Assembly: GCA_964471125.1 (NCBI GenBank)
Contig: CAYYFD010000002.1
Span: 1 to 33,399, forward strand
Length of the DNA: 33,399 nt
Direction: 5' to 3'
Source of the DNA: an uncultured Candidatus Peribacteria bacterium
GTDB lineage: Bacteria > Patescibacteriota > Gracilibacteria > Peribacterales > Peribacteraceae
Shown here one piece after another: positions 1 through 33,399 of the stretch. Every line of letters begins with the position of its first letter. The first letter of the stretch is position 1. Under the pieces are notes generated by a model that was not told the DNA's origin, did no database searches, and saw only the letters and a list, made by a program, of their open reading frames with translations. Made by a program: the position numbers and the translations under genes.

Positions 1-777
1 GGGGGTTTCCCCCGCCCCTCCCGGGTACTTCTTGGCGCAGGAAGGAGCTTTGTCGCGCGCGTCAGTGTCATCTGCGTCGAAGGCGCCCAGTCTCTCGCAG
101 CAGTCGCCGTTTAGCGGGTCATCGTTGCGAGCCTTTTCCTTGTTGCCGTGCTGCACGCAGGTTTGTCTGTCCACAACAAGAGGAACAAGGGAGATGATCT
201 TGTACCAGACATCAACCCAGACAGGAGATTGCCATTTATTCATACGCTGACAGATGGTCTGACAGCGATCCGGTGTCGACATATTGTCCTTGTTCGGGTC
301 ATCGTCCGGATCTTTACAAGGGGGGGCGTCATCGAAAAACGGCGGAAACCCCGGGCGGCATGCTGTACTCCATCCTCGCGCGCGCGTAGTGACCGGAAAG
401 ACATAGCCGTCACCTAGCGCTCCACTGGACTCATCACGCATGGCCATGCCGGAGGGTTTTTTCGCAAATGGATCTCCTGTGCTCCCTGGTACCCCCACCA
501 CCGTAGCAATTCTATCGACGACGCTTAAGTTTATATTCCATCCGCCACAGACCGCACGATCATTCAGATCCTGATAGATTTCACCTTTAAGCTGACCGAT
601 CTTCCCCGTGACATCGAAGATGGCATCCATATCAGCCGGATTTGTCGTAGGGATTTTATACGGCTCGGGAAAGTCCACCGTATCTCTCGGAGCGGCACTC
701 GCTGAACTCACTGTCAGAAGCATTCCACATCCGAGCAATGTCGCGAGAAGTCGGCGGGGAGGAGGAAGTGTTCGCAC
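1..777 (-). CDS. secreted Cys-rich hypothetical protein (3' end cut by window edge)
   Basis: Uninterrupted 259-codon minus-strand frame from GTG at 775-777 to position 1. The N-terminus (M)RTLPPPRRLLATLLGCGMLLTVSSASA-AP looks like a signal peptide. It is absent from the ORF track because its stop lies outside the window. Confidence 0.55.
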   Translation of the reverse strand, partial: MRTLPPPRRLLATLLGCGMLLTVSSASAAPRDTVDFPEPYKIPTTNPADMDAIFDVTGKIGQLKGEIYQDLNDRAVCGGWNINLSVVDRIATVVGVPGSTGDPFAKKPSGMAMRDESSGALGDGYVFPVTTRARGWSTACRPGFPPFFDDAPPCKDPDDDPNKDNMSTPDRCQTICQRMNKWQSPVWVDVWYKIISLVPLVVDRQTCVQHGNKEKARNDDPLNGDCCERLGAFDADDTDARDKAPSCAKKYPGGAGETP

Positions 778-874
778 AGCGGTTCCTATGGTAACTCTTT
801 TATGCGCAGAGGATGGTGAAGAAAAATTGACACGACACGTAGAAAATAGAAGAGCAGCAGGACGAAAGAAAAAA

Positions 875-963
875 AGAAATAAGGGATGTACGGGAAATAA
901 GGGATTATCCCTTACATCCCTTATTTCTCTTATTCCCCTTATTTCCCTTATTTCCCGTATTCT
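875..963. repeat. cluster of GAAATAAGGG / CCCTTATTTC 10-mers including a 16-bp inverted repeat
   Basis: AGAAATAAGGGATGTA (875-890) is the exact reverse complement of TACATCCCTTATTTCT (913-928). An inner palindrome AAGGGATTATCCCTT lies at 899-913. CCCTTATTTC recurs at 918-927, 936-945 and 945-954, with degenerate copies beside them. Confidence 0.8.
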
Positions 964-1075
964 CAATCCCTTCGTCTATTGCACCTTCTTTTTCATGGGT
1001 GTACGAATGTACACGTTGCTTCTTTTGCAACCTCGCGTAGGCTCCGCGATCCACTTGTCTTTCCCCCATTATTCT

Positions 1076-1930
1076 ATGTTTTCCCTCAATCGTGTTTCCC
1101 TCATCGGGTACCAAACACAGCCTGTTGAGCTTCGTCAGACCCCTTCCGGAACGGCAGTGACCGATCTGAATATCGTTGTTCCCACAACATTTTCTTCCGG
1201 AGCGGGAGAGCAGCTCACCGGCAAAGGATTTTTTACGGTGACGGTTTGGGGAGCGATGGCGGAAGTCGCATCACAATATTTGCGTGCCGGCGGACAGGTG
1301 TACATCAGTGGTCGTCTGCAGACCGATAGCTGGGAGGACCAGCAAAGCAAAGAGAAGCGCAATAAAACAAAGATCGTTGCTCAGGACATGATCCTTCTGG
1401 ATCCTAAAGATGGTCAGCGCCCTGCCACCGCGGGGTCAGAGCTGGGTAAATGCCTGAATCGTGCCGAGATCATCGGCAATGTAACCAAAGATCCCGAAAT
1501 GCGTACAACAACGAGTGGTCAGAACGTGCTGACGATCGGCGTCGCCAGTAACGAGAAGTGGAAAGACAAGCAGAGCAATGAGATGAAGGAGCGCACGGAG
1601 TTCCACAGTGTTGTCGTATGGGGTGCGCTTGCCCAAGAGCTTTCAGCGCAGGTGAAGAAGGGCAATAAAGTATTCGTTTCCGGCCGCGTGCAAACACGCA
1701 GTTGGGAAACGCAGACCGGAAGCAAGCGGACAACGACGGAGGTTGTTGCTGATCAAGTAAGTTTGCTCGGCGTTGCGAATGCTATTGCGACTGAAGCAGT
1801 TTCTTCGCGCTCTGCAATGCCTGCACGCGAGAAGCAGGAAGAGTCCGCATCGGTTGCTGCAGAGCCCGTCGGCGTGATGCCGGAAGTGCAGTACCAGTCG
1901 GATGTGAAGGTGGAGGATTTGCCGTTTTAA
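1076..1930 (+). CDS. ssb: single-stranded DNA-binding protein with two tandem OB folds
   Basis: Two consecutive SSB-like OB segments (MFSLNRVSLIGY...SGRLQTDSWED and LNRAEIIGNVTKDPEMR...SGRVQTRSWET) and the C-terminal tip ...VKVEDLPF. The ATG at 1076 is in frame with track ORF 608..1930, whose upstream part overlaps the minus-strand CDS and the repeats. Confidence 0.85.
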   Translation: MFSLNRVSLIGYQTQPVELRQTPSGTAVTDLNIVVPTTFSSGAGEQLTGKGFFTVTVWGAMAEVASQYLRAGGQVYISGRLQTDSWEDQQSKEKRNKTKIVAQDMILLDPKDGQRPATAGSELGKCLNRAEIIGNVTKDPEMRTTTSGQNVLTIGVASNEKWKDKQSNEMKERTEFHSVVVWGALAQELSAQVKKGNKVFVSGRVQTRSWETQTGSKRTTTEVVADQVSLLGVANAIATEAVSSRSAMPAREKQEESASVAAEPVGVMPEVQYQSDVKVEDLPF

Positions 1931-2873: not shown

Positions 2874-3350
2874 CTATCTCTTCGATAGCAATGCCGCCGC
2901 CTTTTCCATACTATCGAACACCTTTTGTCCCCCTCCGCGTAGCTGTACTTTACTCATCATCCATCCGACAGCAGCAACGGCGACAAGCCCGCCGGCAAGG
3001 ATGGCCAGTTCTTTGGTTCCAAGGCTAATATTGACCTGAAGAAGGAGGAGTTCCATCACAGCGAGCGCAAACACTCCACCGATCATGCCGATGCCGAGTG
3101 TGACAACCACAATATGTACACGGTTCTCCTGACTGTCCTGTGCGGCTCCGGCGAGGCTCGTCAGAAGTTCTGCATCAATTACCACAGGAGATGCACCCCA
3201 GTCTTTGAAGAGCGTGGTGACTTTGCGCTGGATCACCAGCATCACGAATGTTTTAAAGGGAACGGTCGTCTTTCCTTCGATGATTGCTCGTGTTCCGTCG
3301 GAACGGAGCGTGACTTCTGTGTCGTGTTTGCTGGAGGTAGTGAAGGCCAT
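2874..3350 (-). CDS. hypothetical membrane protein
   Basis: 158-aa ORF with two hydrophobic helices (VHIVVVTLGIGMIGGVFALAVMELLLL and LAILAGGLVAVAAVGWMM). It is tightly packed between the TrmB-like gene and murB on the same strand. Confidence 0.6.
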   Translation of the reverse strand: MAFTTSSKHDTEVTLRSDGTRAIIEGKTTVPFKTFVMLVIQRKVTTLFKDWGASPVVIDAELLTSLAGAAQDSQENRVHIVVVTLGIGMIGGVFALAVMELLLLQVNISLGTKELAILAGGLVAVAAVGWMMSKVQLRGGGQKVFDSMEKAAALLSKR

Positions 3351-3362
3351 AAACGGAGTGTA

Positions 3363-4145
3363 TCACCTTTTGGTAACAGGGGAACTTGCCTGCCAGAGGA
3401 TTTCAAACCATGCGCGGAAAGCATCGGCGATATTTTTATTTTCGATGCGTATGATTGTCTGTTCGTCATCATGGGCAAACAAGGCGAGCGTATCTTCAAA
3501 GAGCATGGTATCCAGATCGAACTGTGCATCCTTTGGCAGTAGCCGCATCTGGTAATCATCACTGGGCGGCACGTCGCGAATGTACTGCATTGCCATTGCA
3601 CTTTGTACGAGAAGATCGCGACCACGTAACTTTGCCGATTTACCAAAGAGTGACGTGACGATATTCCCGCCAAACGATTGAAATAACGATGCAGGATTGA
3701 ATATGCCGCAGATTTCGTGGGACAGTGCATCTCTGTAGAGCTGTCGCATGCCTTCCATACCCCGCAGTGTGGTGACACGCGGCGTTCCCATAAGGGGTTT
3801 TGTCAGCTGGGACAGCAGAGGGAGTGATCCCAATATCAGAGGTTTAAGAGAGTGCAATTCCCGTTCTCTGTTTTCGACAAACTGCAGCAGGCGCTCCGGC
3901 GGTTCTGCAATGAAGTGAATCACCTTCCCGCGTTCAATCTCAGAGACCAACCCTTTTGCCTCAAGATTGCGCAGGAGCAAATACACATGACTGCGTTCCT
4001 GCTTTGCAGCTTTTGCGACTGCGCTTGCCCGTGCGACCTTAAGGGAGAGGAGCGCCAGATAGACTTCCACCTCTTTTTCATCGAGCCCGATGCGCAGAAG
4101 AAGCGGGCGGATAGCAGTGAAGCCTGATGGAGAAGTGGTAGCCAT
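3363..4145 (-). CDS. TrmB-family winged-helix transcriptional regulator
   Basis: The N-terminus LGLDEKEVEVYLALLSLKVARASAVAKAAKQERSHVYLLLRNLEAKGLV matches the TrmB-type HTH pattern. A roughly 180-aa C-terminal domain follows. Confidence 0.7.
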   Translation of the reverse strand: MATTSPSGFTAIRPLLLRIGLDEKEVEVYLALLSLKVARASAVAKAAKQERSHVYLLLRNLEAKGLVSEIERGKVIHFIAEPPERLLQFVENRERELHSLKPLILGSLPLLSQLTKPLMGTPRVTTLRGMEGMRQLYRDALSHEICGIFNPASLFQSFGGNIVTSLFGKSAKLRGRDLLVQSAMAMQYIRDVPPSDDYQMRLLPKDAQFDLDTMLFEDTLALFAHDDEQTIIRIENKNIADAFRAWFEILWQASSPVTKR

Positions 4146-21720: not shown

Positions 21721-21771
21721 CTCCGCATAATTTCTTGCCATGTATTGTCTCGAGGGCATACTGCTTCTCCT

Positions 21772-22653
21772 ATGTCTTCTGCTGAATCCACTTCCGCCAA
21801 TGCCATTCCTGTCATCGAAGACGATGTTCTCGTAGAACATGTTCTTGGCATGGGCGTTATTCCCCAACTTCAAAGTGGTGACAGCTATGCATCGAATGCT
21901 ATCCCAGCCTTGGCGCGCCGCGCACTGACTAAGCATAATCTTCCAGCACCGCAGGACCATATACAGAGATTGGTTGATTCCGTTACGACATCCTTAATTG
22001 CAAGGGGCATCACGGTTCAAGCTTCTCGTTCCCTTACGCCCAATGGAGCTCCTCAGAGAGTACAAGCCCGATGGAGAAAAACTCTACAAAATCTTTCTAC
22101 TCTTATAGATACAGAACAAGCCATTGTAGAAGAGATTGCTGCAGCTGCGGTTGAAGCAATGCATGGATCACCTCGCTCGCGCAGTAGTATTGAATCGGCT
22201 ACACACCTTCGTCTTAGTGAACGTATGGATATATCGATGTCTCGGATGCGTGTGATGACGGAATCCGTCATAGCACGTATAGAGGCATTGATGGGGCAGC
22301 AGAATGTGGATCCTACTACTCAACATAACGATGCAGCTGAGAATGCGGATGGAGATATTGTAGACGCTGCAAATGCAGATTATGCCGATAGTGATCCGGA
22401 GGCTGACTTGCAGGATCTGACAAAAAAAGGTGTTGATCCCAGTAAGCCCAGCAAGGCAAAGCCCGGGTCGGAAGAAAGAATATTACACATTGCTGCGTGC
22501 TATGCAGCCGGGAAGCCGCTCTGGAAGCCCGGTGATGAAAATGAAATGACGTCACCTCAAGATGAAGAGCAATCGCGCAGGGCTCGCGTTGAGGCAAGTA
22601 AACAGGCGACTGATCGCGTTCGTGCGGATCTTGCAGCACTCAAAGAATATTAA
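21772..22653 (+). CDS. hypothetical low-complexity/acidic protein (293 aa from ATG 21772)
   Basis: ORF inserted between sufB and sufD. The track start at 21745 is TTG. No motif recognised. Confidence 0.5.
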   Translation: MSSAESTSANAIPVIEDDVLVEHVLGMGVIPQLQSGDSYASNAIPALARRALTKHNLPAPQDHIQRLVDSVTTSLIARGITVQASRSLTPNGAPQRVQARWRKTLQNLSTLIDTEQAIVEEIAAAAVEAMHGSPRSRSSIESATHLRLSERMDISMSRMRVMTESVIARIEALMGQQNVDPTTQHNDAAENADGDIVDAANADYADSDPEADLQDLTKKGVDPSKPSKAKPGSEERILHIAACYAAGKPLWKPGDENEMTSPQDEEQSRRARVEASKQATDRVRADLAALKEY

Positions 22654-23620: not shown

Positions 23621-24916
23621 ATGTCGCGTTATTCATTGCGGCATGACCGGTATTCCGACAAGGACATGGAGATGATTCTGAGGATGTGCGCCGGTTCGTT
23701 GCTCGTTGCAGCAGGCTTTGGAGGGTGGATGATCCACCAGGGCATCTTCGGAAAACTCTGGGCGATTGCCTGGGGTGGTTTTCCCATCTGGGTGATTTTC
23801 ACACTAGTGGGAGGCTTCGGCTTGATATGGAAACTCAAGCATGAAGAGTTCTCGTGGGGAGAGTTTGCTTCCTTGGGTTTCCTGGTGCCACTTCTCAGTA
23901 CGCCGTTTGTCATGGGTGGCTACTACTTCACGACAGATCTCCGCGACACGGAGATTTGGAATGGGTACGTTACCCGCGCGGAGTACGAGGAGGAGTACAC
24001 CACAGAGACCACATCGACGGACGATGATGGAGATACCACGACGAGTACGACGTATCATCCGCCAGAGTGGTGGATCTATACGTCCAATCAGATGGGTCTC
24101 GGGCCTGAGCGAGTGCGAACGGACTCTGTCGTTTTCGATCGCTATGCGCAACTCTTCGGCAACAAGCGGGAGGAAGACAAGTATCACCCTGACCAGAGCA
24201 GCATCGGTGACGGTGATGTGTGGATTACGGATTTCGACGGGCTTCCTGCCCATCAGATCCCGACTGCCGTGGAACACGAGTTTGTGAATTACGTCAAAGC
24301 GACGGATAACATTCTCAAGGTCCACGGGGCACTCTCCGGGTACGAGCAGTATTTGCTGCCCTACCCCCACGTCCATGCCGGTCCTCATGGTGAGATCGAA
24401 TTCGATCGCATCGTTAATCCGGGCGTGAATGTCCCGACAACATGGTCAACGGAAGTCGACCAGAAGCTGGATCGCGTACTGATGAACATGGGCCAGCGCA
24501 AGCAGGTCAATGTTATCGTGTACTTCGCTCCGGCCAATCAAGGTTTCTTCCAAGCTCTGCAAGAGTCGTGGTGTCTGGGTAAAAAGAACGATGTCATCGT
24601 GGTCATCGGCATGAAACAATGGCCGACTGTCGATTGGGTTCAGGTTATGGCCTGGACTGACCACAAAATCTTTGTCGAAGAACTCAAGGATCATGTTCTT
24701 ACGATGGGCCCTCTGGAAGGAAAGGCAGAGGAATTCGTCACAGGTGTCGTTGGTTGTATCGATGGTACGAAGGGTGAGGGGTATGAACGCAAACCCATGT
24801 CGGATTACGACTACTTGGTCGCCGATATCGGTCTGCCCTGGTGGGCTGACTTCGGAGTTGCGGTCATCGGTTCCATATTGATTCTGCCGTTTATCGGCTT
24901 GTTTATCCGCAACTGA
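23621..24916 (+). CDS. hypothetical polytopic membrane protein (431 aa)
   Basis: GGAGG lies 4 nt upstream. There are three N-terminal TM helices and one C-terminal TM helix flanking a roughly 300-aa soluble region with an acidic Thr-rich stretch (EEEYTTETTSTDDDGDTTTSTTY). Confidence 0.75.
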   Translation: MSRYSLRHDRYSDKDMEMILRMCAGSLLVAAGFGGWMIHQGIFGKLWAIAWGGFPIWVIFTLVGGFGLIWKLKHEEFSWGEFASLGFLVPLLSTPFVMGGYYFTTDLRDTEIWNGYVTRAEYEEEYTTETTSTDDDGDTTTSTTYHPPEWWIYTSNQMGLGPERVRTDSVVFDRYAQLFGNKREEDKYHPDQSSIGDGDVWITDFDGLPAHQIPTAVEHEFVNYVKATDNILKVHGALSGYEQYLLPYPHVHAGPHGEIEFDRIVNPGVNVPTTWSTEVDQKLDRVLMNMGQRKQVNVIVYFAPANQGFFQALQESWCLGKKNDVIVVIGMKQWPTVDWVQVMAWTDHKIFVEELKDHVLTMGPLEGKAEEFVTGVVGCIDGTKGEGYERKPMSDYDYLVADIGLPWWADFGVAVIGSILILPFIGLFIRN

Positions 24917-24974: not shown

Positions 24975-25553
24975 ATGAAAAAGCTTTGGTTGATTCTCGG
25001 TGTGCTCGTTGTGGTCGCACTACTCGCTGCAATCTATGTCTTCGGAGTTCGCAATAGCTTCGTCTCACAGGAGGCCAAGATTGTTGCACTTCAAAAAAAG
25101 TGCCAGAACACCTTGTCGACAATGACCAATTCCCTGCGCAGTCAGGGTTTGGTGCAAGCAGAGTACAAAGACATGCTGCTCAAGGCTCTCGATAAGGTCA
25201 CGAGTGCTCGCAAACTCAGTGGCGCTTTGGCTGTTATGAACGCTATCAAGGAGGATAACCCGACCGTATCAGACGATATCCTCAAGAAGATTCAGAATGC
25301 CATCGAGGGGCATTACACAAAGTTCGAGTCGGATCAGAATACGAAGGTGGATGCCGTGCGCATCTTGCGTTCGCAGACCGATCCAGCCATGTTCCCACGG
25401 GGAGCCATTGCTCAGTTCTTCGGCTTCCCTCGTATTACCTTGGATGATTATGACCAGATCATTATGTCCGAGGAGGCATCCAAAGCCTTTGATACCGGAA
25501 AACTCGCACCGGTGAACCCATTCGGAGAAGAAAGTAAGGCCGAAAAGGAGTGA
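24975..25553 (+). CDS. membrane-anchored LemA-like protein (assignment tentative)
   Basis: AGGAGG lies 6 nt upstream. An N-terminal TM helix is followed by YVFGVRNSFVSQEAKIVALQKK..., which resembles the LemA N-terminal pattern (YNxLV...). Confidence 0.65.
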   Translation: MKKLWLILGVLVVVALLAAIYVFGVRNSFVSQEAKIVALQKKCQNTLSTMTNSLRSQGLVQAEYKDMLLKALDKVTSARKLSGALAVMNAIKEDNPTVSDDILKKIQNAIEGHYTKFESDQNTKVDAVRILRSQTDPAMFPRGAIAQFFGFPRITLDDYDQIIMSEEASKAFDTGKLAPVNPFGEESKAEKE

Positions 25554-26191: not shown

Positions 26192-26671
26192 ATGTTGCAT
26201 CCAGTCGTCATCTGTTGTTTCTTGTTGATGTTTGGGATTGGCTTTGCAATCCCCGTTGGGATGATCATCTTTGAAAAGCTCCGTGAGCAAACGGTTGCGG
26301 GAATGGCTGGATCTTCCCAGCTCAATCCGGCGATGGCTCAGAAGCGCCGAGAAGACTTTGCAGGCATGCACTGCAAGTACTCGCTGCCGACTGAAAGATC
26401 ACTGACAGCCGGCCTCTACCAAGAGGCCGGCTACGTTTGTTGTATTTGTCCGTTACGCCGTTCGTCTTTAGGAAAGCTGGTCTATTTCGAACTGCCTTTT
26501 TGCAAAGTCCTGGACCGAGAAGATGTTGGTATCCAGCTCATAAAACGTTCTCAAATCATTCCCTTGATATTCATGATATTGATGGCTGCTGCCTTGCTGT
26601 TTCCTTCTGTGTACTTCTTTATTGTAAAACACTTTGAATTCATCAAAATTCCAAGGTTCTTGGTTGAATGA
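26192..26671 (+). CDS. hypothetical two-TM small protein (159 aa), uncertain
   Basis: GAGGAG lies 5 nt upstream of the ATG and a promoter lies upstream. Hydrophobic helices sit at both ends. However, the ORF contains a terminator-like hairpin and is codon-aligned antisense to a minus-strand ORF. Confidence 0.4.
   Translation: MLHPVVICCFLLMFGIGFAIPVGMIIFEKLREQTVAGMAGSSQLNPAMAQKRREDFAGMHCKYSLPTERSLTAGLYQEAGYVCCICPLRRSSLGKLVYFELPFCKVLDREDVGIQLIKRSQIIPLIFMILMAAALLFPSVYFFIVKHFEFIKIPRFLVE
26407..26445 (+). terminator. terminator-like hairpin inside ORF 26192..26671
   Basis: AGCCGGCCTCT-ACCA-AGAGGCCGGCT (11-bp perfect stem) followed by the T-rich ACGTTTGTTGTATTTGT. Confidence 0.45.
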
Positions 26672-26701
26672 TTCGATGCCAGTGAATTGTAAGTCGTTCA
26701 T
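26468..26701 (-). CDS. alternative 77-aa ORF overlapping the stop of the 1,652-aa gene (ATGA)
   Basis: The ATG at 26701-26699 overlaps the TGA at 26700-26698 of the upstream gene. The composition is odd (almost no Ala), so it may be a shadow of the plus-strand ORF. Confidence 0.2.
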   Translation of the reverse strand: MNDLQFTGIESFNQEPWNFDEFKVFYNKEVHRRKQQGSSHQYHEYQGNDLRTFYELDTNIFSVQDFAKRQFEIDQLS

Positions 26702-29700
26702 GATGTGGGGGGTAAGGAGAATTCGGGGAATTGCTTGAGAAGCTGCGAACGGTAGCTCTGGATTTGTAGGAGTAGGAACCGTGATGCCTTGGAAAAACGT
26801 GTAAACGTTTCCTGCTGCATCTGCGCATACATGGGTTCGATAATCGGCAGAAAGAACTGAATAAACCACTCTTTGGGCAGTTGCCGCTTTGCAGGTGGTT
26901 GCTTCGTATCCTGCAGAACGCTGCGGTAATTATCCAGCATGTCTCCCAGTTTTATGATTTTTACGCCTTCATCTGCGGCGTGTATCTGTGCAAGATAGGC
27001 GGTCACCGAGGCATCGCCTGTCGGGTTTGTAAGTGCCGCGATCTTGCGGTCGGTATCTGCGCCAAACTTTTGCTGAATTTTCTCATGATCGACGTCGGTA
27101 TCTTCATAGAGATCATGCCCTAGGGCAGCAAGGAGTATGGTTTCTTTTTCAGCATCCGGAACATCTCGATCCAGTGATAGTGCTGCTTCGAGATCGCATG
27201 TCACATCGATGCAGTGCTGCCAGTCGGGTCGCCCGCCTGATCGCATACCGTGATGTTTTTGCTGGATGAGCGCTGCAAGATCTTTTTTCTTTCCCTCCCA
27301 GCGATGAGGAACACCGCCTTTGTGCGGGAAAAATGTCCTGTAGTAGGCTTCCCAAGATTTCTCATTGAGCATGTCCTGATCTTTCACAAATCCGTAATAC
27401 TCTTCTCTCCCACGATATGCAGGCAGAGGGGCTGATGCACGTGCAAGTACCCATGCACTCAAGACTTTAGCTACCTTTCCGCAGCCATCTTCGAAGAAAT
27501 GGTCTGTGAGATCGATCTTGTACTCCACCCAGGCCGCAAGAGCGACGGGATCCTGGTCTCCATCACTTAGTCTTCGGTGGAACTCCTCGCAAAACTGGTT
27601 CATGGCATCGGGCAACTTCGCGATGGCGGTATAGGGGAACTTTGTCGAGTCTGCCGTGCGGTACAAGATCCCTTCCTTCACGATTCCACGATTGATTTCT
27701 GTCGCAATCGTCTCGATGAATACACGAATATCCTGGGGACTTTCGAATGCACGGTTACGTTCGGCATGTACCCGCTCGACGACACACTGGAAATTGAGAC
27801 GTGCGAAATCTCCTACTGATCCGTCGATCTTTGCCATGGATGTAGCCTTTTTTGCGGTTGCAGAGGTATCCACGGTTCCACTGCCGATGGTTCGGCTCAT
27901 GCCATTGATGTTTGCCAGGCATTTTCTGGAAAAGAGCATGCCTTCAGGAGCTTGCATCGCATGCATGACAAGCATGGGATAGTCGGTGTTTAGCGTGGGC
28001 TCAGCCTCACTTGGCTGCTGCTGCGCAAGAAGCACAGCCTGTTTTTCGCCCGGGATATCGCTTTTCAGGAGCCAGTATTCGCCGTTGATCTCATGAATAA
28101 GATTCGCCTTCTCTCTACGATGAGACACGGACTCTGTATATCCGCCATCAATGATAGTGCGTGGAGGGATGGGCGAGGTGCCGTTAGGGTTGCGTCCCTT
28201 GATTCCTTTGCCCGGGTTTCCATAGACACGATCGAGACTTGTCTGGAGCTCTGCATCAACATCAATCATGATGGTGTGATATCCCTGTGCCTGGTTGGCG
28301 ACCTCCCGTACGTCGCTCGGTTTGGTAAATCGTTTGTCGATAGCGACGTGCATTTCTTTTCCCAGTGCCCAACGGATAAGGTCTTCGGCCATCTGCGCAC
28401 CTTCGGTATGCGCCTGAATGGAGGTAATTTGTGGGACTCCATTCACCAATTCTTCTCCGCGGATAGCAGCTTTCATTTCATCAGGATTGATGGCACACGA
28501 CGGGTCGATATTCAAAAGCCCGATTCTTTCGCATGCTGCAGGCGGGTGCTCCACGGTATAGCTCTTGCCGGATGCAGTATTGCCACTCAAAAGCACCAAT
28601 ACTTTTTTTCCACGCAGATCTGCCAGTCCATCTTTTTCTGCGATCGCACGCTTCATTTTTTCATGGCCTTCTACAATCTTTGCGCGCCAGGTTTCTACAA
28701 TATTCTCGCGAACCGCATGACGCTCGGGGATCCATTTGTCGATATCGGCAATCTCGGCTTTCTTATCATCTTTACCCTGCGGCAGCGTGTTATAGGTATA
28801 TGCGTCGATGGTATGGATGTCCGGATTGCGCCACATGCATTCACGGAGTAATTCGTAACGATTTTTGCTGGCATCTTCCTCACCGGCTGTTTCAATCTTT
28901 TGCGTCGGGCTTACTTTGTAGCGTGCCAAAACCTCACGCGCACTTTCCCGAGTAATCTCTTCAAAATATACCCTGCCCGCACTATCGATCGTTACCACGC
29001 CGTCTTCCGAGCGGCCAACGATGGTAAATTGGCACTCACGGAAATTGGGGACTCCGCCAGGGTACAAATCATTCACTTCATCAATCGCTGCATCTCTCTT
29101 TTTCGGATCATTGAGGACATCGGGCGAAAATTTGGTCCGCCAGTTATCTGCGACATCTAATCCAGTGATAATTTTCAGTCCTTTCTGGTTTTCTCGTTGT
29201 TTTGCCAATTGCTCGAGACGGACAGCCAACGGTACATTCTCTCGGAGCATCGCCTGAAATTCCTCCTCCCGTACTTCCAAGACCACAGTACCGTCTTCTT
29301 CCGCCGTTACTGTTGCATTTCTGCGTCGATCCTTACTGAAATGGAGCATTTCGCCGACGGTGGTTCCGGGGCCGATGATGCCGAGAAAAATAGGATCGCC
29401 GGACTCACTGCGGCGATAAATGCCCGCACGTCCTTTCAGGACAACAAAGATGCTGCGCTCACCGCTCTTTTCCTTCGCAGTCCCCGTGCCCCGATGTTCC
29501 GGTGACTGCGTGATGATGCGGCTGTCACGATTGAATTGTTTCCGGAGGAAAAGATTCTCCGCATTGGGATGGGCATTGGCATATGCAATGACTCCTTCCA
29601 GAATGTCTTTCTTGTGATCATCAATTTTGCCACCGTTCTCATTGAGGACATTAGCAAGCTCCTCTATACCCTGCGCAGAGGAAAGGACTTCGGTTTTGGT

Positions 29701-31656
29701 GACGTAGGCAAGCAGGCGCTGCCGCGCAAGGCTCTGAAATGCCTCTTCGAATCCTTCCGTGCTCATCAACTGATGGAAATCATTACTCGTCATGGTGATT
29801 GCTTCTACATCGCCGCCTTCGATGACGACGTCCGCAGTCGCCGTATTGTCGTTGAGCAGTGAGAGCTCCCCGGCAACATTCGGGAAGGCCATACGGTCAA
29901 TGAGGCGTCGCTGCATTTGCCCCTCTTTTGTGCGAACTTCTTTGTAGACCGCTGGCTTGCCTGTACCAGAGAGAAGCAGGAAGACCGTATGGTTTTCCTG
30001 TCCTTGTCCCAGAATCACTTCTCCTTCTTTTAGCGTCCGTCGCTGCAATCGGTTTGCAAACTCCGGATGGGCACGTGCGTAGTCCACGACACAATGGATC
30101 ATCGTACCGCGACGGCTGCCGGGGCGTAGTACTCGTGCATGGGACTCGATCTCATGTATGAGTGAGTTTTCCTCAGGTTCCTCGGGCCTTGCGCCATTCG
30201 GTGTCCTGACTGCTTCCCGAAGCTCGCGCAGTTTCTGCTGGGACATAGGATTGCCCTGAATGCTTTGTAGGAACGCAATGAGATACTGACATGCCTCACG
30301 GTCCGGATGATCCGGCGGCATTTCGCGGTATCGCGAACGCAGACAGGCAAGATCCTGCGTCATGTTTGTGAGATGGCCGGTGACACCAATCACAGTTTTT
30401 CCAAAGGCAAATGCCTTTCCGTGAATATCTTCCAGTGCTGCGATTTCATCGTTGGAAGTTGCGAGTAACTTCTTGGCCAATCCTTCTAATGTCGGATCGA
30501 TTTCCCGGAAAGCGATGACAAATGCGTCACGCTCATTTTTTGTATTTTCGATAGTTCCATGGAAAATGTTTTCACTTGTCTCGTCTGCTAGCTGAGAAAA
30601 ATTCCTGACGATCAAGGGGTACTTTTTCTGTGCTTCTCCGGATGTCAGGAGGTTACCCTTTGTATCTGCTGCGACAATGCCTTGTTCATCGATCTGTATA
30701 TCCCGCATGCGCCGTGACGGCGTAATGCGGTCGAGTGCATATCCCAGTAATCCGACCGTGCGCGCTTCCTTCTGGGGAATGCCCGCTTGTCCTGCTCCAA
30801 AATCGATAATTTTCTTGCGCAGTTGATTGGCAAGCGCGTCGAACTCAGGTGAGTCCTTTTTGCCTTCCAATAGGGATAATTCGCCTTCTTCCGATGGAGT
30901 CAGGACAGCTTTAGGTACGCTCTTTTTCTTCTTCAATGTTGCGAGCCGTGCCGCTTCTTTTGAGCAAATGAAAAGGATAGGGCAAAGATCCGGAGGGACA
31001 TCGCCGCCCGGAACGAAGTTGCGGACCATGTCGATGGGGTACCCCGGATGATGCGCTGCGAAGATGTACGAGAGCCCTCGGGCTTGCTCCGGTGAAAGGC
31101 CAGCTGCCTCCAGCCGACGCATACCTGCGACGATGCTACCCGTTCCATGAAGAAGGATTTTCCGTACGGTATAATTCTGATTCTCTGGACGTGTGATGAA
31201 ATCATATGCTTCACCTGCCTTCACCTCCGCATCTTTATCTGTATATCCGGCGATAATGGCATTATCGGTGAATACCCGTCGCAGTTCCTTTTCATGGCTT
31301 ACAAGATTCAGCTCCGTATCGCTGTAGGCAAGGTCATGATGTTTAATAAAAACCTGCAGTAATGTTTTCAGCTCCGAAGGTTCGGGAAAAATGCTATCCA
31401 AAAGCTCCAGATGAGAGGCGAGGTGGGGGTCTACTCCCGGTGGGTAATCGGAAGGACTTTCTTGTCCTAATGCCAATGCTAATTTTTCCAAAACGTCCGG
31501 AGGAAGTTGCAGATGGAGACTTGTAAGTGCATTCCCATCAAGCACATGAGGAATGGCATCTCTCACATCACCAATCCCTGTCGGGATCGCTGTTAGAGGA
31601 TTGCTAGGAACAGCATTTTCAGCCGCATTATTTTCATCAATACGATCTGCAGGCAT
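26698..31656 (-). CDS. giant multidomain protein: HD-like / 2x cNMP-binding / Zeta-like P-loop kinase / Fic-Doc-like / RelA-SpoT-type HD hydrolase
   Basis: Single uninterrupted 1,652-codon ORF. The domain motifs are listed in the separate domain features and in the findings. Confidence 0.9.
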   Translation of the reverse strand: MPADRIDENNAAENAVPSNPLTAIPTGIGDVRDAIPHVLDGNALTSLHLQLPPDVLEKLALALGQESPSDYPPGVDPHLASHLELLDSIFPEPSELKTLLQVFIKHHDLAYSDTELNLVSHEKELRRVFTDNAIIAGYTDKDAEVKAGEAYDFITRPENQNYTVRKILLHGTGSIVAGMRRLEAAGLSPEQARGLSYIFAAHHPGYPIDMVRNFVPGGDVPPDLCPILFICSKEAARLATLKKKKSVPKAVLTPSEEGELSLLEGKKDSPEFDALANQLRKKIIDFGAGQAGIPQKEARTVGLLGYALDRITPSRRMRDIQIDEQGIVAADTKGNLLTSGEAQKKYPLIVRNFSQLADETSENIFHGTIENTKNERDAFVIAFREIDPTLEGLAKKLLATSNDEIAALEDIHGKAFAFGKTVIGVTGHLTNMTQDLACLRSRYREMPPDHPDREACQYLIAFLQSIQGNPMSQQKLRELREAVRTPNGARPEEPEENSLIHEIESHARVLRPGSRRGTMIHCVVDYARAHPEFANRLQRRTLKEGEVILGQGQENHTVFLLLSGTGKPAVYKEVRTKEGQMQRRLIDRMAFPNVAGELSLLNDNTATADVVIEGGDVEAITMTSNDFHQLMSTEGFEEAFQSLARQRLLAYVTKTEVLSSAQGIEELANVLNENGGKIDDHKKDILEGVIAYANAHPNAENLFLRKQFNRDSRIITQSPEHRGTGTAKEKSGERSIFVVLKGRAGIYRRSESGDPIFLGIIGPGTTVGEMLHFSKDRRRNATVTAEEDGTVVLEVREEEFQAMLRENVPLAVRLEQLAKQRENQKGLKIITGLDVADNWRTKFSPDVLNDPKKRDAAIDEVNDLYPGGVPNFRECQFTIVGRSEDGVVTIDSAGRVYFEEITRESAREVLARYKVSPTQKIETAGEEDASKNRYELLRECMWRNPDIHTIDAYTYNTLPQGKDDKKAEIADIDKWIPERHAVRENIVETWRAKIVEGHEKMKRAIAEKDGLADLRGKKVLVLLSGNTASGKSYTVEHPPAACERIGLLNIDPSCAINPDEMKAAIRGEELVNGVPQITSIQAHTEGAQMAEDLIRWALGKEMHVAIDKRFTKPSDVREVANQAQGYHTIMIDVDAELQTSLDRVYGNPGKGIKGRNPNGTSPIPPRTIIDGGYTESVSHRREKANLIHEINGEYWLLKSDIPGEKQAVLLAQQQPSEAEPTLNTDYPMLVMHAMQAPEGMLFSRKCLANINGMSRTIGSGTVDTSATAKKATSMAKIDGSVGDFARLNFQCVVERVHAERNRAFESPQDIRVFIETIATEINRGIVKEGILYRTADSTKFPYTAIAKLPDAMNQFCEEFHRRLSDGDQDPVALAAWVEYKIDLTDHFFEDGCGKVAKVLSAWVLARASAPLPAYRGREEYYGFVKDQDMLNEKSWEAYYRTFFPHKGGVPHRWEGKKKDLAALIQQKHHGMRSGGRPDWQHCIDVTCDLEAALSLDRDVPDAEKETILLAALGHDLYEDTDVDHEKIQQKFGADTDRKIAALTNPTGDASVTAYLAQIHAADEGVKIIKLGDMLDNYRSVLQDTKQPPAKRQLPKEWFIQFFLPIIEPMYAQMQQETFTRFSKASRFLLLQIQSYRSQLLKQFPEFSLPPTS
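26857..27225 (-). other. RelA/SpoT-type HD domain (alarmone-hydrolase-like, aa ~1478-1600)
   Basis: HCIDVTCDL...ILLAALGHDLYEDTDVDHEKIQQKFGADTDRKIAALTNP...VKIIKLGDMLDNYRSV parallels the H...AALLHDvvEDT...FG...v..lT...vKLADRLHNmR pattern. Confidence 0.7.
27397..27789 (-). other. Fic/Doc-like module with non-canonical motif (aa ~1290-1420)
   Basis: GILYR...DPVALAAWVEYKIDLTDHFFEDGCGKVAKVLSAWVLARASAPLP. The motif HFFEDGCGKVAK (27463-27501) differs from the canonical HxFx(D/E)GNGRxxR. Confidence 0.6.
28057..28623 (-). other. Zeta-toxin-like P-loop kinase module (aa ~1012-1200)
   Basis: Walker A VLVLLSGNTASGKSY, then LLNIDPSCAINPDEM, VAIDKRF and IMIDVDAELQTSLDRV, in the order seen in Zeta/AAA_33-type kinases. 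Confidence 0.5.
29212..29604 (-). other. CAP-type cyclic-nucleotide-binding module 2 (aa ~685-815)
   Basis: SIFVVLKGRAGIYRR...GPGTTVGEMLHFSKDRRRNATVTAEEDGTVVLEVREEEFQAML. The GE...R-x-ATV cassette is intact. Confidence 0.7.
29737..30099 (-). other. CAP-type cyclic-nucleotide-binding module 1 (aa ~520-640)
   Basis: GEVILGQGQENHTVFLLLSG...VAGELSLLNDNTATADVVIE...ITMTSNDFHQLM. The phosphate-binding-cassette Arg appears to be replaced. Confidence 0.6.
31012..31359 (-). other. possible HD-type phosphohydrolase region (aa ~100-215)
   Basis: H..H (PHLASHLE), then IKHHDLAY, LLHGTGS and FAAHHPGYPID. This is a loose H...HD...H...HH-GYP spacing, and the match is weak. Confidence 0.3.
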
Positions 31657-31662
31657 CAGATG

Positions 31663-31691
31663 ATTATAGCAAAAAATGGCACATTCTTCAA
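31663..31691 (-). promoter_or_regulatory. sigma-70-like promoter TTGAAG-17-TATAAT placed 6 nt before the ATG of the giant gene
   Basis: The minus strand reads TTGAAGaatgtgccattttttgcTATAATcatctgATG. This implies a leaderless or near-leaderless mRNA. Confidence 0.55.
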
Positions 31692-31710: not shown

Positions 31711-32424
31711 TTAGTTTGTAAGTGTGGTTTTGGCTGCAAATTGCTCCCTCCACGCAGTAGTAGCCTCTTGCCAAGCTGTCGCTTGTGTAGCCCCATCTGC
31801 AATCATATGCAGAATAGGGAGTGATGTTGTCAGTTTTGGTTCCACGCAGTCACGAAAACAGGAATATGCCTTGCGGAATCTCGCCCAAAACTTTCGTATG
31901 GCTGGAGGTGTGATCTCCGTTGGTTGGAAATGCATCGCTGCGATACGCTCCGCGCATGTCAGATTGTCGACATCCTGCGTGGAAAGTTCTGTGAGGAGGC
32001 TCCATGCATCATCGATGGTTTGCGCATCGCCTTCGCGTCTACTCGCAAGGTGCTGCAGCGCGCGTTCCATGAAATTGCGGTTTCCCCGTTCGCGGTCCAT
32101 CACCATCATGAGGCAGTCATCTTCAGTGCCGATGCTGAAATCATAAGCATTGCGCACGACGCCCATATCGATGAGCGCGCGAGCAACATCAAAGTAGGGA
32201 AGGGGATCTTGTTCACTGAGAGCAATGATGGTATTTGCCTTGGATTGCATATCAGGATGCCCGGCAGTGTCATCCAGTACATCTTCACAAAGCTCATGCG
32301 TTCGGGCTATACGTTCGTTTAACATTGGTGGCCTGGTGACTACTTCTGTTCGTGTTTCAAAGAGTTGGCCTTGGAGCCGGTCAGGTGTGTGGGTACGCCT
32401 CATAAGGACTATAGTAGCAATCAT
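31711..32424 (-). CDS. hypothetical protein (237 aa)
   Basis: ORF immediately upstream of the giant gene on the same strand. No motif recognised. Confidence 0.6.
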   Translation of the reverse strand: MIATIVLMRRTHTPDRLQGQLFETRTEVVTRPPMLNERIARTHELCEDVLDDTAGHPDMQSKANTIIALSEQDPLPYFDVARALIDMGVVRNAYDFSIGTEDDCLMMVMDRERGNRNFMERALQHLASRREGDAQTIDDAWSLLTELSTQDVDNLTCAERIAAMHFQPTEITPPAIRKFWARFRKAYSCFRDCVEPKLTTSLPILHMIADGATQATAWQEATTAWREQFAAKTTLTN

Positions 32425-32642
32425 CTTTTTGTGTGTATGTCAAAATACCCACTAAAGTGAGTATGTATTGTTCACAGCATTGCAGAGTAGAGAAGGTCTT
32501 CCGGGCCGCATTCGCACTTCCGTGCGGTGCGGGGTAGCCCCCGGGCAATCATAAGTATGATGGCAATTGGTTACCTGCCAGAGCATACGTCCCTAGATCA
32601 CACTAAAGAGTATGATGCTAGGTCAGAGAAAAATTCCTCTGG

Positions 32643-33399
<757 letters not shown>

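Follow-up and report, generated by a model that had tools for sequence, protein, structure and literature searches.

AvrRxo1 of Xanthomonas oryzae pv. oryzicola is a protein of ~421 aa that is secreted by the type III secretion system (T3SS). It phosphorylates the 3′ position of the adenosine of NAD and nicotinic acid adenine dinucleotide (NAAD), and ATP and ADP only slowly (PMC5087710, PMC5491322). The protein is bacteriostatic and toxic in E. coli, and is neutralized by Arc1 (AvrRxo2) (PMC5087710, PMC5491322, PMC4938570). Related proteins occur in the candidate phyla radiation (CPR): Triplett et al. 2016 reported that AvrRxo1-like proteins from Parcubacteria and Saccharibacteria (KPJ86019 of Parcubacteria SG8_24 and AGL61921 of Ca. 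Saccharimonas aalborgensis) carry a Fic/Doc domain at the C-terminus and that an arc1-like open reading frame (ORF) lies downstream of their genes; in S. aalborgensis an unnamed ORF was present between avrRxo1 and arc1 (PMC4938570). A second group of relevant enzymes is formed by MESH1 and the small alarmone hydrolases (SAHs), which remove the 3′-pyrophosphate of (p)ppGpp/(p)ppApp, the 2′-phosphate of NADPH and the 3′-phosphate of CoA, MESH1 being a CoA 3′-phosphatase (PMC13221220). In the FaRel toxSAS system, the SAH ATfaRel is a type IV antitoxin that degrades the product of the toxin and works beside a protein-binding second antitoxin, AT2faRel (PMC7229694). No paper joining AvrRxo1 with small alarmone hydrolases was found in a literature search. 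Here we analysed a stretch of 33,399 nucleotides from an uncultured Candidatus Peribacteria bacterium (contig CAYYFD010000002.1, positions 1 to 33,399; hereafter the window), which contains a large gene whose product carries, in this order, an N-terminal conserved module, two cyclic-nucleotide-binding (CNB) domains, an AvrRxo1-type kinase domain, a Fic-like domain and an SAH/MESH1-type HD domain, followed by a gene for a 77-aa partner.

Comparison with unfused relatives showed how this protein is put together. In Parcubacteria, Saccharibacteria and metagenomes, a search with aa 880-1652 retrieved stand-alone proteins, 736-893 aa in length, which span the kinase and Fic-like domains and end where the HD domain begins; one of them (P0011) is the published AvrRxo1-like protein of Parcubacteria SG8_24. 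At the loci L011, L012/13, L014 and L015, the next gene, of 186-197 aa, matched aa 1456-1647 of the window protein and was itself followed by an ORF of 101-120 aa. The separate HD genes gave E values of 1e-21 to 1e-30 against this segment. At the SG8_24 locus (L010), an HD homologue was found at 3227-3772 (plus strand), with 36% identity to aa 1456-1639 and an E value of 3e-28. The small CPR ORFs carry the published Arc1 motif, and their profile matched the solved AvrRxo1-ORF2 (4z8q_B) with an E value of 9.5e-5. Kinase-Fic, SAH-type HD and small ORF were thus linked in all five stand-alone loci, and the HD is fused in three lineages (the window, P0001 and P0002/3), so that linkage or fusion was seen at 8 of 8 distinct loci. 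This pattern constitutes Rosetta-stone evidence of joint function. Because its parts are separate but linked in the stand-alone loci, the large protein can be regarded as a fused module to which sensors have been added.

It was also observed that the kinase-Fic and HD genes of the unfused CPR operons overlap by 1-4 nt (L012 3446-3449; L014 5117), like the ATGA of the window. At L010 there was no called gene at the position of the HD homologue, immediately upstream of KPJ86019, and the gene seems to be unannotated.

The window protein and the CPR proteins therefore have in common the kinase-Fic cassette with HFFxDGCGK, a linked SAH-type HD and an Arc1-like ORF, but the CPR proteins have their HD separate and lack the ~900-aa sensor half. 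A preliminary description of this DNA, made from the sequence alone, had stated that no described architecture is known to join all of these domains. This needs to be narrowed, since the kinase-Fic combination with arc1 was already reported in 2016 (PMC4938570), but linkage to the HD and fusion to a sensor half seem not to have been described. What appears to be new here is the constant linkage or fusion of the SAH/MESH1-type HD, the cyclic nucleotide monophosphate (cNMP) sensor half and the rare N-terminal family. That the locus is a sensor-fused CPR AvrRxo1-Fic/SAH/Arc1-like module can be stated with far more confidence than any mechanism proposed for it.

The kinase domain contains the motifs GNTASGKS (1025-1032), IDKRF (1106-1110) and DVDAELQTSLDRV (1132-1144). 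It matched Pfam Zeta_toxin (PF06414) above the cut-off (E 7.9e-6, 25.9 bits vs 22.3), and matched the NCBIfam model XopAJ/AvrRxo1 (NF041405) over aa 950-1208 with an E value of 1.5e-21. The score of 77 bits did not reach the curated T3SS-effector cut-off of 300 bits of that model, and by sequence the domain is placed on a distant branch and is not an orthologue of the XopAJ-type effector. The family profile nevertheless aligned with nearly the whole AvrRxo1-ORF1 crystal construct (PDB 4z8q/4z8v; E 1.5e-69, residues 4-332 of 334), and a single-sequence comparison with the AvrRxo1 structure gave an E value of 7e-7. An AlphaFold model of aa 880-1652 (pLDDT 86, pTM 0.77) was used for Foldseek searches, in which the kinase matched AvrRxo1-ORF1 with an E value of 2e-12 and a TM-score of 0.70 (target), and zeta/PezT with 2e-3 and about 0.5. 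In the alignment, the serine S1032 of Walker A (consensus GxxxxGK[ST]) corresponds to T167 of AvrRxo1 (GNTASGKS vs LRGNTATGKT), and D1059 in INPD, the predicted catalytic aspartate, corresponds to D193 in VNPD. Both T167 and D193 were experimentally required for toxicity and 3′-NADP formation (PMC5491322, PMC5087710). The motif NIDPS was rejected as the catalytic one, because the alignment puts the D193 equivalent in INPD.

The domain had first been described as a Zeta-like kinase, and Zeta toxins phosphorylate UDP-GlcNAc. The P-loop kinase fold and the relation to Zeta_toxin hold, but the domain belongs to the AvrRxo1 branch. A UDP-GlcNAc zeta-toxin kinase was rejected because AvrRxo1 was much closer in the NCBIfam, profile and Foldseek comparisons, and because proteins of the AvrRxo1 branch have no UDP-GlcNAc (UNAG)-binding motif and do not phosphorylate UNAG (PMC5087710). 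The epsilon/zeta and PezAT systems, whose toxins are UDP-GlcNAc 3′-kinases, share the P-loop kinase superfamily with the window protein, but their antitoxin gene lies upstream, in contrast to the downstream partner gene here. AvrRxo1-Arc1 resembles the locus in kinase fold and sequence family, in the Walker A motif and catalytic aspartate, and in having a small same-strand gene immediately downstream. It differs in that Fic, HD, CNB and N-terminal HD-like domains are absent from AvrRxo1, and the small partner in the window is only weakly Arc1-like.

The C-terminal segment had been read as a RelA/SpoT-type HD domain, and this was confirmed with the more precise assignment to the SAH/MESH1 group. 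The profile of the domain matched the MESH1/SAH structures 3nqw, 6yvc and 4yf1 (E 2e-13), and the family profile that aligned with AvrRxo1-ORF1 also matched MESH1, with an E value of 2.5e-10. In Foldseek, SAH/MESH1 structures were found with E values of about 1e-4 (8e-5) and TM-scores of 0.64-0.75, including the MESH1-NADPH and MESH1-PAPS complexes, and in NCBIfam the C-terminus resembled the spoT/relA hydrolase. The motifs GHDLYEDT (1513-1520) and KLGDMLDNYRS (1569-1579) are present, and H1481, H1514-D1515, E1518-D1519, D1572 and D1575-N1576 are intact, invariant in the family and aligned with MESH1. Pfam HD (PF01966) stayed below threshold (E 0.12, 13 bits vs 22), and Pfam HD_4 gave only sub-threshold matches, in P0002/3. 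There was no synthetase (SYNTH) domain by Pfam, and the HD domain ends the protein. The likeness to SAH/MESH1 proteins, ATfaRel included, thus covers both the fold and the complete HD...ED...D..N motif set. The idea that the hydrolase acts as a built-in counter-activity gained strong comparative support from the SAH-type HD gene at each of the five stand-alone CPR loci. The locus further resembles FaRel/ATfaRel/AT2faRel in combining a proposed product-degrading enzyme with a second, protein antitoxin, but differs from FaRel in that the putative ‘writer’ is a P-loop kinase and not a RelA/SpoT synthetase, and in that the hydrolase is fused in cis.

Between the kinase and the HD lies the Fic-like domain, with the core HFFEDGCGKVAK at 1386-1397. 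Here the preliminary description, which gave a Fic fold with a deviant core, was supported by weak matches: E 4e-4 for the family profile against FICD, and 0.01-0.025 for Foldseek against the Fic proteins 3eqx and 3zec. Pfam Fic (PF02661) gave an E value of 0.0055 and 18.0 bits, below the cut-off of 24. The canonical HxFx(D/E)GNGRxxR is not found; Asn is replaced by Cys, the first Arg by Lys, and the last Arg by Lys (Asn in P0002/3). The core retains the catalytic His, the Phe, the Asp and both Gly. Among 12 family members the core reads HFFxDGCGKxx[KN], and HFFxDGCGK is at least 90% invariant. The Fic-like domain is also the segment most conserved in comparison with the stand-alone CPR proteins (41-52% identity). 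Since it is conserved and selected, it is probably active or a regulatory partner of the kinase.

The 77-aa gene, which is missing from the preliminary description, is coupled translationally to the large gene. Small genes for 76-81 aa follow all orthologues, including one of 36% identity, and share PW..F..YN...Y..D.N..DF. With phmmer and with a three-sequence profile, no relevant PDB match that would indicate direct Arc1 homology was obtained. The 77-aa protein aligned in register with the CPR Arc1-like proteins, but weakly (hhalign E 0.0018, probability 15%). Based on these alignments, the protein may be a divergent inhibitor of the Arc1 (AvrRxo1-ORF2) type. The layout of a type II/IV toxin-antitoxin system is present, with the ATGA overlap, the conserved partner and the linked or fused eraser.

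The large gene was found to be a genuine unit. The single uninterrupted ORF of ~4.96 kb, described earlier with no strand given, lies on the minus strand; a plus-strand reading was dropped, as the plus-strand frame across 26698..31656 is riddled with stops. All motifs quoted at that stage were found in the translation. The domain list and order were borne out by profile and Foldseek matches, with the corrections for single modules given here. The GC content of the gene equals the window average, and its composition is uniform. No transmembrane (TM)-like or signal peptide-like segment was detected in the 1,652-aa protein (maximum 19-residue Kyte-Doolittle mean of 1.09). Because there is no TM-like segment, the protein is predicted to be soluble and cytoplasmic.

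A search for the same domain order in other genomes yielded three full-length orthologues. P0001, with 71% identity, was found in one JGI and two SRA data sets, on 5 contigs in all; P0002, which occurs on 3 contigs, and P0003 have 36-37% identity; the domain order is identical in all of them. The ratio of non-synonymous to synonymous changes (pN/pS) was about 0.14-0.25 in every module, with the synonymous sites of the large gene being saturated, and the linker of aa 486-532 was the sole relaxed segment in this comparison. Purifying selection acts on all modules.

The sensor half was expected from the preliminary description to carry two CAP-type modules. Both were indeed recognized, as two stretches above the cut-off of Pfam cNMP_binding (PF00027; E 5.9e-23, 81 bits vs 27.5), but only CNB domain 2 has the phosphate-binding Arg. 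The respective motifs are AGELSLL...ATADVVI (595-612) and VGEMLHFSKDRRRNATVTAEE (767-787). In CNB domain 2, E769 and R779 are the equivalents of E72 and R82 of CAP. CNB domain 1 retains the Glu of the phosphate-binding cassette, and its Arg position is occupied by Ala (‘VRSA’ of PKG2 aligns with ‘TATA’). Thus the proposal of a sensor upstream of the effectors holds, with at least one canonical CNB domain N-terminal to the enzymatic half. The CNB region also gave a PADLOC match to PycTIR (E 1e-13) and a PDB match to 8jsk; the PADLOC matches are limited to the generic CNB domain.

The N-terminal 485 residues had no Pfam or NCBIfam match. They contain a conserved module with the motifs KHHDLAYS (105-112) and AAHHPGYP (200-207), for which an exhaustive HMMER search of 1.84 billion proteins yielded a family of only 40 cluster representatives. 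Some members stand alone, with ~360-430 aa; the others are built into giant proteins, the largest of which has 3,948 aa. In an alignment of 15 stand-alone and 18 multidomain members, H107-D108, H170, H202-H203(PGYP) and D309 were invariant and H78 was conserved in at least 90%; further invariants were GGE..KKY and E375. The order H...HD...H...HH...D is that of the ligands in the HD superfamily. Among the 18 multidomain members, the Pfam partners were cNMP_binding (6 of 18), GGDEF (3 of 18) and REC (2 of 18). We regard the module as a probable, divergent enzyme of the HD superfamily that is linked to signalling by cyclic nucleotides and could be an HD-GYP-like phosphodiesterase or a nuclease.

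The loose HD-like region noticed there earlier was substantiated in part: the ligand order is invariant in the family, but no significant HD profile or fold match was obtained for the window protein itself. Cas3_HD of Pfam was matched by one of 15 family members (E 1.3e-5), and the family profile aligned GHG...HHPGyP with the HD domain of T. thermophilus Cas3 (3sk9) at an E value of 0.23. The AlphaFold (AF2) model of the module (pLDDT 77) had no significant PDB neighbour in Foldseek, the best named one being PDE10 (E 0.45-1.8), and hhalign against the SAH HD gave a probability below 1%. A bona fide HD-GYP domain was rejected on the absence of a Pfam or NCBIfam match, the non-significant Foldseek result and the negative hhalign comparison with the SAH HD. 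The module resembles HD-GYP and Cas3-type HD domains in ligand order, and HD-GYP also associates with GGDEF, REC and CNB domains. HD-GYP domains have the spacing HHExxDGxGYP, in contrast to the window module, in which GYP directly follows HH and in whose family the Tyr is often Phe.

Some members of this family were conspicuous for their size. In a 2,512-aa Peribacteria protein (L007 2149-9687) with the N-terminal module, not a single Pfam domain was recognized. A 2,784-aa Omnitrophota protein (L008 7-8361) and a 3,948-aa protein (P0017) combine the module with CofD-like, glucosamine-6-P isomerase-like, cNMP-binding and REC domains.

The coordinates of the gene, its modules and the flanking features are given in Table 1.

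Table 1. Position of the large gene, its domains and neighbouring elements in the window.
Feature	Coordinates	Strand	Remarks
Large ORF	26698..31656	minus	ATG start, no interruption, 1,652 aa, ~184 kDa, pI 5.7
N-terminal conserved module	30202..31455	minus	aa 68-485; rare all-helical domain family
CNB-like domain 1	29707..30060	minus	aa ~533-650
CNB domain 2	29182..29559	minus	aa ~700-825; canonical phosphate-binding cassette
AvrRxo1-type P-loop kinase domain	27982..28824	minus	aa ~945-1225
Fic-like domain	27322..27819	minus	aa ~1280-1445
Small-alarmone-hydrolase/MESH1-type HD domain	26716..27291	minus	aa 1456-1647
77-aa partner gene	26468..26701	minus	ATG overlaps TGA of large ORF (ATGA)
GC-rich hairpin, 11-bp stem	26407..26432	.	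AGCCGGCCTCT-ACCA-AGAGGCCGGCT
Sigma-70-like promoter match	31663..31691	minus	TTGAAG-17-TGcTATAAT, consensus match only
237-aa ORF upstream of large gene	31711..32424	minus	no family match
16S rRNA gene, 3′ half	32643-33399	minus	complete 16S in sister contig L001 (7009-8480), same position

The genes of the window (tandem-SSB, MurB, GluRS, MurG, FtsW, SecA, HolB, SufC/B/D, an iron permease and the 3′ half of a 16S rRNA gene) show that it is core chromosome. The locus is syntenic in a sister organism, and the P0001 locus shares with the window the gene order 16S rRNA - small ORFs - large gene - small gene - iron permease - SufD/SufB. The hairpin sits between the convergent 77-aa and iron-permease genes and, judged from its structure, is likely a bidirectional terminator. 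The sigma-70-like match is the sole promoter-like element upstream of the large ORF (31657-31691), and 6 nt separate its -10 element from the ATG; no Shine-Dalgarno sequence was found upstream of this ORF. Because of the short distance and the missing Shine-Dalgarno, the mRNA of the large gene is predicted to be possibly leaderless. The 237-aa ORF has a counterpart (51% identity) beside the close orthologue only, with nothing convincing beside the distant ones. Its membership in the module is doubtful, because the 71% orthologue is the sole one with a convincing counterpart beside it, and no family match was obtained.

The 16S 3′ halves of the window and L001 were 98.3% identical over 757 nt. 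The rRNA genes appear to be unlinked, because protein genes of the same strand, namely the 237-aa ORF and the large gene, and not tRNA or 23S genes, lie downstream of the 16S gene. Two plus-strand ORFs, of 108 aa over the 16S gene (32527-32853) and of 159 aa over the 77-aa gene (26192-26671), had no family matches and are probably not genes. Three further plus-strand ORFs, at 21745-22653, 23621-24916 and 24975-25553 (302, 431 and 192 aa), lie in the SufB/SufD and SufD/iron permease gaps and had no significant Pfam, NCBIfam or PADLOC match; since the housekeeping genes are directly adjacent in L001, these ORFs are taken to be lineage-specific insertions. The gene at 608-1930 (plus strand) encodes a 440-aa protein with two single-stranded DNA-binding protein (SSB) stretches (Pfam SSB E 1.2e-59); the protein is longer than bacterial SSBs usually are and apparently arose through tandem duplication or fusion.

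To account for these observations together, a composite model was considered, in which the locus would be a cNMP-controlled, reversible writer/eraser switch of toxin-antitoxin type that governs growth or dormancy. We see this model as evenly balanced between being right and being wrong. In it, the kinase would, like AvrRxo1, write a 3′-phosphate on NAD or on an adenine nucleotide related to it, and the 3′-phosphorylation would deplete or poison the cofactor pool and lead to growth arrest. The fused HD would erase the 3′-(pyro)phosphate added by the kinase, and the 77-aa protein would block the kinase directly, as Arc1 blocks AvrRxo1. Binding of a cyclic nucleotide to CNB domain 2 would shift the balance between writer and eraser. 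The N-terminal module would most likely hydrolyse a cyclic (di)nucleotide signal as feedback, or provide a further output, and the Fic-like domain would probably be active or modulate the kinase as its partner. A more specific version, with a dedicated kinase/HD writer-eraser pair for a 3′-phosphorylated adenine nucleotide (3′-NADP or one close to it), cNMP control in this lineage, an N-terminal module that represents a hitherto unrecognised HD-superfamily family of cyclic-(di)nucleotide phosphodiesterases, and a chemistry other than AMPylation for the HFFxDGCGK Fic variant, is put forward only tentatively and is somewhat unlikely in all its parts together.

Several points weigh against the switch model. 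Identity of the kinase to AvrRxo1 amounts to only about 20%, and its acceptor could be something other than NAD. The HD could be a plain (p)ppGpp/(p)ppApp hydrolase that is unrelated to the kinase product. The Arc1 likeness of the 77-aa protein is weak and indirect, with the published Arc1 motif KExFD...(Y/L)ExxYY being only partly kept, and the Fic motif is non-canonical. On the sensor side, the phosphate-binding Arg of CNB domain 1 is missing in all four orthologues, no nucleotide cyclase gene was found in the window, and the N-terminal module is placed in the HD superfamily by motif order and two weak links to Cas3-HD. Enzymatic activities throughout the family are predicted ones.

The same domain identities would also serve in a non-toxic messenger relay or metabolic regulator. 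In that case the kinase and the HD would make and degrade a signalling nucleotide (3′-NADP or 3′-phosphorylated ADP/ATP) on a cNMP cue, the Fic-like domain would modify a downstream protein, and the small protein would be a regulator and not an antitoxin. The core-genome context, stable inheritance and purifying selection are consistent with such a role, the sensor half has domains of a type characteristic of signalling proteins, and AvrRxo1 can use ATP and ADP as well (PMC5087710). Nevertheless, every characterised AvrRxo1 homologue tested inhibits growth without Arc1 (PMC4938570, PMC5491322), and tight coupling with a small inhibitor-like downstream gene is a hallmark of toxin-antitoxin systems; we regard a relay as unlikely.

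A less favourable case can be made for an effector that is exported, or delivered by contact, from an epibiotic or predatory small-genome bacterium. The kinase-Fic-HD half would then act inside a host or prey cell, much as AvrRxo1 acts in plants, and in the producing cell the 77-aa protein would provide immunity or be a chaperone. CPR bacteria and Omnitrophota are known for host-dependent lifestyles, and relatives of both halves of the protein were found in metagenome-assembled genomes of these groups. The gene order would fit an effector with a small downstream immunity-like gene, and AvrRxo1, for its part, is secreted as a type III effector and has Arc1 for its antitoxin/chaperone (PMC4938570). 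The preliminary description had likewise offered a host-directed effector, for which no support was obtained: the protein has no signal peptide-like or TM segment, and the window holds no secretion-system genes except housekeeping SecA. Moreover, an N-terminal half of intracellular signalling type would be unusual for a translocated toxin, and the fused eraser would oppose the effector's own action in the target. Taken together, an exported effector is quite improbable.

Single-protein anti-phage abortive infection, in which a phage-induced cyclic nucleotide would activate the kinase and the Fic-like domain by a Pycsar/CBASS-like logic and the infected cell would be killed or arrested, fares no better and is judged a poor prospect. 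Pycsar effectors have similar CNB domains (matches to PycTIR and 8jsk), and like Pycsar/CBASS effectors the protein has a CAP-type CNB domain N-terminal to a predicted toxic effector domain. Abortive infection employs toxins that target NAD or are of alarmone type, and toxSAS have been implicated in phage defence (PMC7229694). Unlike Pycsar/CBASS loci, the window has no adjacent cyclase or defence island, and the protein combines several enzymatic domains, an eraser and a small partner. Defence-system membership was rejected because PADLOC matched the CNB domain alone, with no match for the ten uncharacterised neighbours. The housekeeping, syntenic position beside the 16S gene, and a GC content equal to the window average, are not the signature of a mobile island, so the suggestion of an abortive-infection or defence protein found no contextual support.

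Finally, a chimeric assembly or a decaying pseudogene, as might be suspected from the very long gene, the unusual domain combination and a 90% cluster of the window protein that otherwise holds fragments only, is extremely improbable: a chimera is excluded by orthologues of the same architecture on independent contigs from separate data sets, and the open frame, the uniform composition and pN/pS values well below 1 speak against decay.

AvrRxo1 is the founding NAD 3′-kinase toxin/effector, and the removal of 3′-NADP and the roles of AvrRxo1 homologues in non-pathogens are the questions on which this locus bears. By fusion and by conserved linkage, an SAH/MESH1-type HD is the constant partner of the CPR kinase-Fic branch. 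This leads to the testable idea that the HD dephosphorylates the kinase product, which would connect AvrRxo1 with the 3′-phosphatase activities recently described for MESH1. If the dedicated writer-eraser pair proved true, a natural eraser of products of the AvrRxo1 type would be known for the first time, and MESH1-like 3′-phosphatase chemistry would gain a bacterial role. The rare N-terminal family of the sensor half and the Cys/Lys-substituted Fic core are two further items of note. The switch model, if confirmed, would represent a compact, second-messenger-gated and self-reversing form of toxin control in small-genome bacteria.

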